Assembly (NCBI GenBank): GCA_964016885.1
Contig: CAXHJY010000913.1
Coordinates: 1 to 64,000 of the forward strand
Reading direction: 5' to 3'
Source of the DNA: Eledone cirrhosa
Lineage: Eukaryota
Length of the DNA stretch: 64,000 nt
Below, one piece after another: positions 17,826 through 57,744 of the stretch; the first letter of the stretch is position 1, and every line of letters begins with the position of its first letter. The translations under genes and the position numbers were made by a program. The notes beneath the pieces were generated by a model. The model was not told the DNA's origin. It did no database searches and was given only the letters and a program-made list of their open reading frames with translations.

Positions 17826-17974
17826 AGAAAAACCCCTATACTTAATTGGCACTTATTTTTTCTTCATATTGAATTGGTGAAAGTCAAAGTTGACCTGAGA
17901 AAAACCCTTATACTTAATTGGCACTTATTTTTTCTTCATATTGAATTGGTGAAAGTCAAAGTTGACCTGAGAAA
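17826..17974. repeat. About 72-bp tandem duplication inside a decayed SINE
   Basis: TATACTTAATTGGCAC...AAAGTTGACCTGAGAAA occurs twice. Confidence 0.85.
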
Positions 17975-19063: not shown

Positions 19064-19257
19064 CACCACACCACCACCACCACCACACCTACTACTACTA
19101 CTACAACTACTACTACTACTACTACGGATTAGTTCAAGGCAACATATTCAGATGAGCAGCAAACGGTTGATTACATTTATCCTACAGATACTTTATTATC
19201 CAGCGGAATATTTCCTCTTCACTACAATGAAAAGGATAGGAACCGATCGTGAAATCG

Positions 19258-19878
19258 GAGCAAGGAAACTATGTTTCTATTGATCTTTCCATTGCTGATA
19301 CTGTCTTTAAATCAAGGAAACTATTATGTTTCTATTGGTCTTTCCATTGCTGATACTGTCTGTCTTCAGATCAGACCAAGGAAACTATGTTTCTATTGGT
19401 CTCTCCATTGCTGATACTGTCTGTCTTCAGATCAGACCAAGGAAACTATGTTTCTATTGGTCTCTCCATTGCTGATACTGTCTGTCTTCAGATCAGACCA
19501 AGGAAACTATGTTTCTATTGGTCTCTCCATTGCTGATACTGTCTGTCTTCAGATCAGACCAAGGAAACTATGTTTCTATTGGACTCTCCATTGCTGATAC
19601 TGTCTGTCTTCAGATCAGACCAAGGAAACTATGTTTCTATTGGTCTCTCCATTGCTGATACTGTCTGTCTTCAGATCAGACCAAGGAAACTATGTTTCTA
19701 TTGGTCTCTCCATTGCTGATACTGTCTGTCTTCAGATCAGACCAAGGAAACTATGTTTCTATTGGACTCTCCATTGCTGATACTGTCTGTCTTCAGATCA
19801 GACCAAGGAAACTATGTTTCTATTGGACTCTCCATTGCTGATTCTGTCTCTCGTAATATCAGACCAAGGAAACTATGT
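19258..19878. repeat. 61-bp minisatellite, about 10 units
   Basis: Unit CCAAGGAAACTATGTTTCTATTGGTCTCTCCATTGCTGATACTGTCTGTCTTCAGATCAGA. Inner units are nearly identical and edge units are degenerate. Confidence 0.95.
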
Positions 19879-22159: not shown

Positions 22160-22802
22160 TAGACTTAATGATTAATTGATTAATTTAATTAGACAATTCT
22201 ATTGATTGGTTAATTGTTTATGTTTGTTTAATAACATGTAGTTGAGAGCTTTTATTCGGTTTGTGTAAAGGAATTTGACCGCCAAAACCGGGGGTTACCT
22301 CCCTTCGGAGAAACCACGTGACTACTAGCAGTGTTTACTACTAGTTCTTGCAACAGGCGGCGGCAGAACGAAAACTTGTTGACGAAGTAAATTCCACTGT
22401 TCTATCTTCCAAAGACCAATTAACTTGCAGGCCCCTGCAATTGGATTTTGTTGATTTCGGATATACAGAAACCTAGTGGAGATGTTATATAATATTATGT
22501 AATATATCCACGATGGTCTAGGTAACTGTCAAACATTTCCCAGAGTCGGGTTTTTCGTTGTTCTGGTCCTAGCGGCTCGCATTTCGGTTGCTGGCTTCAA
22601 TTTGCAGAGGTGTCTAAACGTAATGTTATAACTCTAAGGTAAAATTCTTTATTGAGTGCTTTTGGCTGCACTTCCCGACAGCATTCGTTAGCTTGCCCGC
22701 AACCAGAGCTTCGATTATGCTGCACTACCTTCTTGTATATATATATATATACAAGACTGGAATTGAACCATCAGCACAGTTGAGGTATGTCAGACATCAA
22801 TT

Positions 22803-22849
22803 TATTTTATCTGATGAGGACGTACTGATGAAACAGCTCAGTACCTCTG

Positions 22850-22856
<7 letters not shown>
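22803..22856 (+). ncRNA. Truncated hammerhead copy (3' strand of stem I replaced by (TA)n)
   Basis: Inverted copy of the 23095-23160 motif. It runs CUGAUGA...GAAAUA and then directly into (TA)n. Confidence 0.6.
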
Positions 22857-23010: not shown

Positions 23011-23052
<42 letters not shown>

Positions 23053-23094
23053 CTTCAAAATATTAATAAATATAGACATTCATGTGATCAAATA

Positions 23095-23160
23095 TATTTT
23101 ATTATACGTATTTCAGAGGTACTGAGCTGTTTCATCAGTACGTCCTCATCAGATAAAATA
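23095..23160 (-). ncRNA. Type I hammerhead ribozyme, intact core
   Basis: Minus strand reads UAUUUUAU-CUGAUGA-GGACGUACUGA(UGAAACAGC)UCAGUACCUCU-GAAA-UACGUA-UA-AUAAAAUA. Stem I is 8 bp and stem III is the palindrome AUACGUAU. Confidence 0.8.
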
Positions 23161-23269
23161 AATTGATGTCTGACATACCTCAACTGTGCTGATGGTTCAA
23201 TTCCAGTCTTGGCAGTGATTAGTTATGACAAAACTCAATATTTATATACCATAAGTAGTAACATGATAG

Positions 23270-25657: not shown

Positions 25658-25697
<40 letters not shown>

Positions 25698-25797
25698 TGC
25701 TGACAACATCAAAATATTCCTAACAAGCTCATATGTCCCAAGGCTCTGATACCATCAACACTATACACACAGAGCTGGCATATCTAAGAACTGACTA

Positions 25798-25843
25798 ACT
25801 GCCTGATGAGGTCATAGGCTATCATCGAAATATATATAGCAGT
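25798..25843 (+). ncRNA. Minimal type I hammerhead ribozyme, intact core
   Basis: Reads ACUGC-CUGAUGA-GGUCAUAGGCUAUCAUC-GAAA-UAUAUA-UA-GCAGU. Stem I is ACUGC/GCAGU, stem III is palindromic, stem II is weak. Confidence 0.8.
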
Positions 25844-25927
25844 AAATACAGGATTATGAGTTCATGCAATTGACTTATGTTTCGTCACTATATATATATA
25901 TATATATATATACACGTGTGTGTATGT

Positions 25928-25984
<57 letters not shown>

Positions 25985-39885: not shown

Positions 39886-40440
39886 ATTAGTATCAACTTC
39901 TTATTTTAATTGCGGATGCCTAGGGGTGCCGTATTAATATACGCGTGACTATGTCTCATAACTCATAACTCACACAAACATTCTTATGCGACATTATGTG
40001 GGTGGCGAACTGCAACGTAGTTAGGGCGTTACACAACTCATACTATATTTGGGATGAGTGAATCGGCAGTTTGTCCTTGTTTTCTCATGTTAGGTCCCGT
40101 TCACAAAAGAAAATGAAAGAAAAACAAGATTACTTGAGCTTTCTTTTTCCTCGGGTCTTTGTTCCTCATAATTCTAATTTTCTTTTATTTTACTTCTGAC
40201 CACCGGCCAGCATCTGCTTGATCACTTGTTTCTTTCTTTGAGGTATTTTAAGGGGCTCTTCGTATTACCATTGCACTTGTTTTATTTGGCTCGCCTCCTT
40301 TGTGCCCTATATATAAAAAAAAATATATATATATATATATTTTTTTTTTTTTAGTATATGCTGGTTGTTACCGACACCTCAGTATGCAGATGGAGCACTC
40401 GACGAAGTGCGCAGGTTGGTTCGGTTACTCAGGAGTAATG

Positions 40441-40682
40441 TAAAATCAAATAAATAAGTCAAATATTTAAAATTTGGCTTCGTTTATTACTGCTATATAT
40501 ATTTCGGTGGCAGCCATCTTTGGATGTGACCTCTACAGGCAGTCCGAATTGGTGTGGTAGAGACGTCTCTACCACATAATTTCGGACTGCCTGTAGAGGT
40601 CACATCCAAAGATGGCTGTCACCGAAATATATATAGCAGTAATAAACGAAGCCAAATTTTAAATATTTGACTTATTTATTTG

Positions 40683-40689
<7 letters not shown>
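40441..40689. mobile_element. About 250-bp near-perfect palindrome with two opposed HHR-like motifs, ending at (TA)n
   Basis: The arms mirror around the spacerless centre GGTAGAGACGTCTCTACC (40556-40573). Confidence 0.8.
40586..40640 (+). ncRNA. Hammerhead-like motif with variant core (CUGUAGA); same family as 25798-25843
   Basis: Reads ACUGC-CUGUAGA-GGUCACAUCCAAAGAUGGCUGUCACC-GAAA-UAUAUA-UA-GCAGU. A mirror copy lies at 40489-40543 on the minus strand. Confidence 0.65.
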
Positions 40690-40719
<30 letters not shown>

Positions 40720-46335: not shown

Positions 46336-46917
46336 TAGCAGGAACCATATCTGAGTGCATCGGTTCGTTCAATTTTTTATTCTTCCTCTTTTAGTTCTGG
46401 CAGGTGTTCGCCAATTTTGAATCTTTACGTTGAATACATATTACATAACACCCACAGTCCTACTACTACTACTACTACTACTACTACTATTAGTACCACT
46501 TGTTTCTTCTTCTTTGTCTTTTTTTACATTTTCTCCAATAAGGTGTATGTGACAAGCTGTGGTTTATGAAATGATTTTCAATCTGAGGTGGTGGTATGTT
46601 ATTCTTTTTTTCTCTGTTTCCTTCTACTGTTAATGATGATGATGATGGTGGTAGTAGTGATTGGCCTTGAACCGTTAAGGTATTTTTCTTGGTTATGTCA
46701 AAATTTATAAAACAACCTTTGTATTTTATCTGATAAAAGCGAACCAAAGTTTTGGTACCCTTGAAATATATATAATAGAATAAATTTGTCTTTATAAATA
46801 TAGTTTCCATTTATTTAATATCATTGAATATTATATTCCAGAAAACTGTTGAGTGTTCTAAATCAGTTATAAACATTTATATTTGTTGAATTACCAACAC
46901 ATTGAATAGCCCTTTTG

Positions 46918-57500: not shown

Positions 57501-57744
57501 TAGGAACGAGTAGGACCCCGACGGCTGAGCTCAAGCCGTTTTGACGGCTAATTCTGGACTAAAAAAAAAAAAATTCTGGACTAAAAAATAAATTTTTTTC
57601 TTTTTTTAGTCCAGAATTAGCCGTCGAAACGGCTTGAGCTCAGCCGTCGGGGTCCTACTCGTTCCTATTACCCACTCTACTACCCTAAGTATTGAGTACT
57701 TTGGTGCGTTATGGTCCACCTGGTTCCTTACCACATTTCCTTCG

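Follow-up and report, generated by a model that had tools for sequence, protein, structure and literature searches.

The region analyzed here, referred to as the window, is a 64,000-nt stretch of Eledone cirrhosa DNA (contig CAXHJY010000913.1, assembly GCA_964016885.1). Positions 25696..25890 on the forward strand are assigned to the end of a Penelope-like element (PLE), designated family A, and are the only family A sequence in the window. The features of this copy, and of a second PLE insertion with which it has been compared, are as follows.

25659..25695, no strand: (TA)18 microsatellite on the 5' side of the insertion (target; repeat listing)
25696..25890, +: 5'-truncated 3' end (3' UTR or pseudo-LTR) of PLE family A; 195 nt, with a family form of 205 nt
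25798..25802, +: hammerhead stem I, 5' strand ACUGC (descriptor scan; covariation between families)
25803..25809, +: catalytic core CUGAUGA, C3 to A9 (95% pairwise identity in six families)
25810..25826, +: stem II, 17 nt, short through a private 10-nt deletion behind 25816 (predicted misfold)
25827..25830, +: core GAAA, G12 to A15.1 (invariant in six families)
25830..25837, +: stem III palindrome AUAUAUAU, A15.1 to U16.1, for which an 8-bp helix between the two molecules of a dimer is predicted
25838..25838, +: A17, with predicted cleavage 3' of A17, triplet AUA (position from the descriptor scan)
25839..25843, +: stem I, 3' strand GCAGU (descriptor scan)
25844..25890, +: 3' tail to the fixed family end (...TTTCGTCAC-TA), approximately 50 nt beyond the cut site
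25889..25966, no strand: (TA)n or mixed microsatellite on the 3' side of the insertion
40354-40690: family B insertion in (TA)n, a 127-nt perfect fold-back (palindrome) with a tail on one side only
40489..40543, -: family B hammerhead, inverted arm, core CUGUAGA; this arm runs on into the one-sided tail
40586..40640, +: family B hammerhead, plus arm, damaged core CUGUAGA

The descriptor scan identified 25798-25843 (+) as a type I hammerhead, with the CUGANGA, GAAA, and UH core elements and three helices, open at stem I. The order is ACUGC, CUGAUGA, the 17-nt stem II, GAAA, UAUAUA, UA, and GCAGU. With the strict descriptor (stem I of at least 5, stem II of at least 3, stem III short), the window yielded two canonical type I hammerheads, at 25798-25843 (+) and 23152-23103 (-), and none of the 100 block-wise dinucleotide shuffles used as the control gave a match. 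A looser descriptor gave a mean of 0.03 matches per shuffled window. When one core substitution was allowed, three further motifs with the same short stem III appeared at 40591 (+), 40538 (-), and 46730 (+), together with one loose match. The preliminary description had proposed a hammerhead within 25696..25890, a stem III and a cleavage triplet built from the same TA dinucleotide as the flanking microsatellites, and a cut after 25838. The scan bore out these points: stem I, the core, and stem III are as originally read, (TA)n lies on both sides, and the predicted cleavage site falls at A25838. Rfam models returned no hammerhead match at the gathering score in five loci, and no hammerhead family was among the matches listed for the window (150 of 424). 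A match to an Rfam model is not what defines PLE hammerhead variants. The microRNA matches from Rfam in the window were rejected as microsatellite artefacts.

Several other repeats were noted in the window. A family D end lies between TA runs at 23052-23268 (-), and its hammerhead (23160-23095) has an intact core and the palindrome AUACGUAU; it is predicted to be the best-folding intact hammerhead of the window. Among the 13 other relatives that matched, stem III is AUAUGUAU in nine and AUAUAUAU in four. A second family D fragment at 22753-22852 (+) stops at GAAA and continues as (TA)19; it faces the 23.1-kb copy, from which 124 nt of a different repeat separate it. At 46722-46782 (+), a family C hammerhead has a damaged core, CUGAUAA (family form CUGAUGA), and the stem III AUAUAUAU; a related nuclease was found upstream in 3 of 15 family C loci. 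A long near-perfect inverted repeat at 57508-57658, which matches several miRNA models below the gathering score, is probably another fold-back insertion. Two young tandem arrays are located at 19254-19878 (nine copies of a 61-nt unit, 98%) and 17826-17974 (72-nt units).

Family A is abundant in the genome. A search of the 3.0-Gb assembly (1,796 contigs) gave 840 candidates, and the 40 that were scored all matched essentially the whole query at 94-100% identity. The 3' half of the normal family A hammerhead occurs in 2,673 exact copies. All 29 other family A loci fetched share a common 3' end, and the 5' ends range from approximately 200 to more than 750 nt. The 5' junction of the window copy is a truncation point, and most of its relatives extend further upstream. 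The 3' junctions show an insertion preference for (TA)n (50 of 59), and in 6 of the 59 the start of the next unit follows. In L043:5081-6260, L021, and L028, the 3' UTR includes a degenerate TA/TG microsatellite, several hundred bases long, which is copied as part of the element. In families A, B, and C, a putative ACTC...GAGT stem begins a few bases past the end of the element (L021:1706-1765, L053:2841-2900, and the B and C tails).

Long family A copies continue into an open reading frame (ORF) that encodes, as judged by motifs, a reverse transcriptase (RT) plus a GIY-YIG nuclease at the C terminus. In L043, an open frame of 847 aa ends approximately 1.3 kb before the cut site and contains HADKTN (ADKT), LYRDD, CNCRDPSLC (CxCx5C), VVYRC...YIG, ICNLC, and CRH; the ORF start with RMRWRA lies upstream in another frame. 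Frameshifts occur near the ORF start in the copies examined. The hammerhead end is present on both sides of the ORF, the location of a pseudo-LTR, in L043, L052, and L053, with a spacing of 4,164, 5,363, and 3,863 nt, respectively. L052 contains internal duplications, and the upstream hammerhead of L043 carries damage of its own. Also found were tandem and inverted copies, truncated at the 5' end and with a tail on one side, a layout characteristic of nuclease-bearing (EN+) PLEs. The nuclease query gave 44,694 candidates in the genome, a figure that is not a copy number. Pfam gave no match for the 847-aa frame and a sub-threshold GIY-YIG match for the nuclease piece (E 0.007, 17.1 bits against a cut-off of 22.6). 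Directly downstream of one family A copy, at L045:6178-8004, a 608-aa frame belongs to another type of PLE, which we take to be Neptune-like by its motifs (KEADKG, CDRPNCGIC, YIGQT).

The accessible text of PMC8557442 characterizes the Hydra clade by RWK and DKT motifs, a CxCx5C linker, CxxC and CxH in the nuclease, canonical hammerheads, and (TA)n insertion. The L043 frame has RMRWRA (R in place of K) and HADKTN with no DKG, the CxCx5C linker, and CxxC and CxH in the nuclease with no Cx2-5CxxC. A CCHH motif was not seen in the L043 nuclease on inspection by eye. A block-wise comparison by eye showed agreement between the L043 frame and the Hydra-1_Obim protein as published. From these motifs and the published alignment, the parent is likely a Hydra-clade PLE.

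The stem II of the window copy is unusual for its family. Among the 29 other family A loci, stem II is 27 nt in 27, 26 nt in one, and 22 nt in one. The window copy differs from L005 by a 10-nt stem II deletion and one substitution, and the short form occurs once in the 3.0-Gb assembly. The long form was present in the public contigs of three of the four runs examined, a comparison that speaks to presence only. Folding predicts that the deletion lets the core pair with stem II and thereby buries the catalytic core (G5-A9 paired at 91-98%). In cofolding, the active dimer of the window copy (-10.4 kcal/mol) lies 17 kcal/mol above the minimum (-27.4 kcal/mol). The window copy is thus likely to be inactive.

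The preliminary description had named in advance, as the finding that would count against it, a family alignment in which the core is no more conserved than the flanks. Such an alignment was made from 46 unique sequences among 48 family A copies, chosen by nuclease or upstream sequence and including one 3'-truncated, misaligned row (L048). The 13 core bases carried 10 substitutions in 580 positions and the unselected flanks 46 in 2,587 (P=1.0), and on this point the outcome went against the description. The core is intact in 37 of the 46 copies. Flat conservation within a family would be expected from the neutral decay of dead inserted copies.

Conservation of the structure does hold among related families. 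Between six families, each with one representative, the core is 95-100% identical and the flanks are 41-49% identical; 98% of the cells are paired, and the stems are compensatory, 13 of the 19 pairs having changed on both sides. The pairing score was reached by none of 500 shuffles, and slid controls pair at 30-50%. Two choices inflate these pair counts: likeness in stems I and III partly guided which families were taken, and the same sequences supplied the structure. The six-family signal represents real structure, and its significance is overstated owing to that choice of families. In stem II, a C at position 4 (after the third pair) is invariant and faces C in five of the six families. Three positions beyond this mismatch is an invariant A-U pair, and the two features may mark a tertiary contact.

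We considered three other explanations of what lies at 25696..25890. A chance motif from AT-rich, microsatellite-rich DNA would be in keeping with the 127 (TA)6+ runs in the window and with the flat conservation within family A; since none of the 100 shuffles produced the motif and the pairs covary across families, we give this explanation practically no weight. The many short top matches with (TA)n on both sides might suggest a stand-alone retrozyme or SINE-like element of approximately 200 nt in place of a truncated PLE. However, the 5' ends are variable and continuous with the RT-nuclease ORF, and no tandem 200-nt arrays were present in the loci examined, which makes a stand-alone element extremely unlikely. 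Family A also lacks what defines a non-LTR retrozyme, namely, a fixed-length non-coding unit in tandem arrays. The third explanation concerns the short stem II of what the preliminary description had called a minimal hammerhead; it had taken the difference in stem II length as a sign of structural conservation within a family. All 13 core bases and stems I and III of the window copy are intact, and a stem II of 3+3 bp may still be drawn, as a functional minimal variant would require. However, this form exists in one copy in 3.0 Gb, its G5-A9 bases are predicted to be unpaired with a probability of only 0.02-0.09, and its active dimer is far from the minimum. We therefore consider a conserved minimal variant to be very unlikely. 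The 27-nt stem II is the family A form, the deletion is private, and the length difference reflects damage in the window copy.

The same description had reported that stems I and III are shared with a copy at 40.5 kb. They are identical to those at 40586-40640, but the 40.5-kb copy does not belong to the same family. Judged from sequence, the 40.5-kb motif is a member of a different, sister family (family B; 823 candidates in the genome). The core of family B is normally CUGAAGA, and both window arms have CUGUAGA, which also occurs in at least one further family B insertion among those listed. The normal stem II is 26 nt in family B and 27 nt in family A. The alignment between A and B starts only at stem I (71% over 116 nt), and the 5' flanks do not align. 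Both motifs compared in the preliminary description were damaged copies, because the window B arms carry CUGUAGA and the window A copy has a short stem II. What truly separates the A and B hammerheads is one base in the loop, a U-A pair that becomes C-G, and a G.U pair that becomes G-C. Family B loci contain only scattered nuclease and RT fragments. The layout of inverted PLE copies has been described in the literature, and the 127-nt fold-back of family B fits it.

Families A and B are identical at 18 of 18 nt in stems I and III and at 17 of 20 nt in stem II. In families C-F, stem I is 94% identical (90/96) versus 49% (59/120) for stem II. For mixed dimers within a group, cofolding predicts the same stability as for like dimers; across groups, it predicts that 4-5 pairs break. 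Stems I and III could thus act as a shared docking code, through which PLE families, including thousands of truncated copies, might cut each other's RNA in trans in two networks. We consider this unlikely; descent, AT-richness, tertiary contacts, and the choice of families can explain the sharing. Should dimers between families prove real, the truncated copies would count not as debris but as regulators of active elements.

The preliminary description also implied a short palindromic stem III of the dimer-dependent type, and folding supports this prediction. The intramolecular pair probability of stem III is 0.00-0.02 (below 0.03 in all five motifs folded), the stem III duplex has a predicted energy of -3.2 kcal/mol, and palindromic stem III sequences occur in most families among the fetched loci. 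Short palindromic stems of this kind are predicted to be unstable in a monomer, as is typical of dimer-type hammerheads. Cofolding places the double hammerhead at the energy minimum in families B and D and within 2.8 kcal/mol of the minimum in family A; in families C-F at a fixed register, the active dimer is 2-3 kcal/mol above the minimum. Normal family A copies are also predicted to have a competing fold that pairs the core. The flanking (UA)n was rejected as a dimer partner by reasoning, since H17 and the 3' strand of stem I have to come next in the partner. Palindromic stem III, dimers, and low activity are described for PLE hammerheads in the available text of Cervera and de la Pena (2014, PMC4209133), with no monomer cleavage and weak dimer cleavage in vitro (PMC4209133; review PMC6765202).

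The TA make-up of stem III might be purposeful. A cleaved RNA end in (UA)4 could anneal to nicked (TA)n and prime reverse transcription, so that stem III would mimic the target. In nine family A copies, the sequence stops exactly at stem III and passes into (TA)n with no tail, against one at a control site with 4-nt microhomology (P=0.02, with an assumed rather than counted control denominator), and one family D copy in the window ends likewise at 22852. These nine belong to 17 family A copies with at least seven TA units at stem III; the other eight are slippage expansions followed by the normal tail. However, nine ends against 2,673 intact copies represent 0.3%, and the normal family A end lies approximately 50 nt past the cut site. 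Family D with AUAUGUAU has two cut-site ends against 4,049 exact copies, the same rate as the control site (P=1.0, again with an assumed denominator). Since the family D ends match the control-site rate, cut-site ends track the length of microhomology and not the cut site. Furthermore, all 26 published Hydra hammerhead rows in the accessible part of PMC8557442 have AC...GU stems, and nearly all of those families insert in (TA)n. Target mimicry is therefore very improbable, and the tie between stem III and the flanking microsatellites hinted at in the preliminary description does not stand: Hydra stems are non-TA in 26 of 26 rows, family D uses AUAUGUAU, and the junctions are driven by microhomology. 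The stem III of other hammerheads in the fetched loci is ACUAAUUAGU, ACUAGU, AGUACU, ACCGCGCGGU, or ACAUGU, and an (AU)3 stem III is found in six Drosophila rows, the original Penelope among them (PMC4209133, available text). The TA identity of stem III is probably not special, but that of an AT-rich dimer palindrome. As a side effect of its TA content, stem III undergoes slippage, as a microsatellite does, and now and then it merges with the target repeat. The genome-wide count, in which a DNA copy hardly ever terminates at the cut site of the ribozyme, bears on what PLE hammerheads do.

We conclude with high confidence that 25696..25890 is the 5'-truncated end of an abundant, likely Hydra-clade PLE inserted in (TA)n, with a type I hammerhead predicted to act as a dimer, and that this copy is likely inactive. 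Intact tandem elements would consist of pseudo-LTR, ORF, and pseudo-LTR, and in three loci the hammerheads are spaced by approximately 3.9-5.4 kb. Within a single transcript, two hammerheads may associate by way of stems I and III and cleave 3' of AUA, and cleavage would release a unit-length RNA, as published work on PLEs suggests. The RT and GIY-YIG nuclease may then start copying approximately 50 nt downstream of the cut site at nicked (TA)n. Copying would usually stop early and leave short ends such as the window copy. The AU-richness of stem III follows from the lineage's use of an AUAYRUAU palindrome, for which self-complementarity and not a match to the target would be needed. The 10 nt missing from stem II of the window copy would have gone during insertion or later, and this copy has no family A partner in the window.

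As it stands, the locus is the decayed end of a known retrotransposon clade and means little. Family A contributes a sub-lineage of Hydra-type hammerheads, present in thousands of copies, in which stem III is AUAYRUAU, the cut site is AUA, and stem II has a conserved C.C mismatch. No description of family A was found in the literature on PLEs, hammerheads, and cephalopod genomes available without subscription, and the literature search returned no paper on an AUA cleavage triplet (NUH) in hammerheads. Lunse, Weinberg, and Breaker reportedly described dimer-cleaving PLE hammerhead variants (RNA Biol, 2016). We regard family A as a separate, new family of the known Hydra clade, and the examples of Lunse et al. 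may already include such cephalopod motifs.

Family A resembles the Hydra clade, e.g., Hydra-1_Obim (Craig et al. 2021, PMC8557442, accessible text), in its RWx/DKT RT, CxCx5C, and GIY-YIG with CxxC and CxH, and also in its (TA)n insertion, a type I hammerhead near the 3' end, tandem and inverted copies, and a one-sided tail. In contrast, the family A unit is approximately 4.2 kb, with approximately 1.3 kb from the stop codon to the cut site, and the Hydra families in that text are generally smaller than 3 kb. Its stem III AUAUAUAU has U15.2-A16.2, whereas all 26 listed Hydra hammerhead rows have C15.2-G16.2, and its long stem II, where a C.C mismatch follows pair 3, is unlike the Hydra hammerheads published there. 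Metazoan non-LTR retrozymes share the type I hammerhead and a proposed PLE origin (bioRxiv 10.64898/2026.07.22.740005, in the part available; see also PMC7229834); however, retrozymes are tandem non-coding repeats, and the window feature is a single truncated end of a coding element. The dimer-cleaving PLE variants covered by the accessible part of the review PMC6765202 have a short palindromic stem III and dimer cleavage, which are predicted from folding in family A. The PLE hammerheads in the available text of PMC4209133 are likewise type I, with a long helix II, a short helix I, a palindromic helix III, and a predicted dimer. In that text, Drosophila virilis Penelope and its relatives have an (AU)3 helix III, in six rows that read GAAA-U-AU-AU-H, with the GAAA column displaced in the text copy; the window family has an 8-nt AU palindrome, against 6 nt in those rows. 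It also differs from the PMC4209133 hammerheads in the absence of an extra base between A9 and stem II and in having A as H17. The window motif is not a strict 'min-HHR' as defined there because loop 3 is present.
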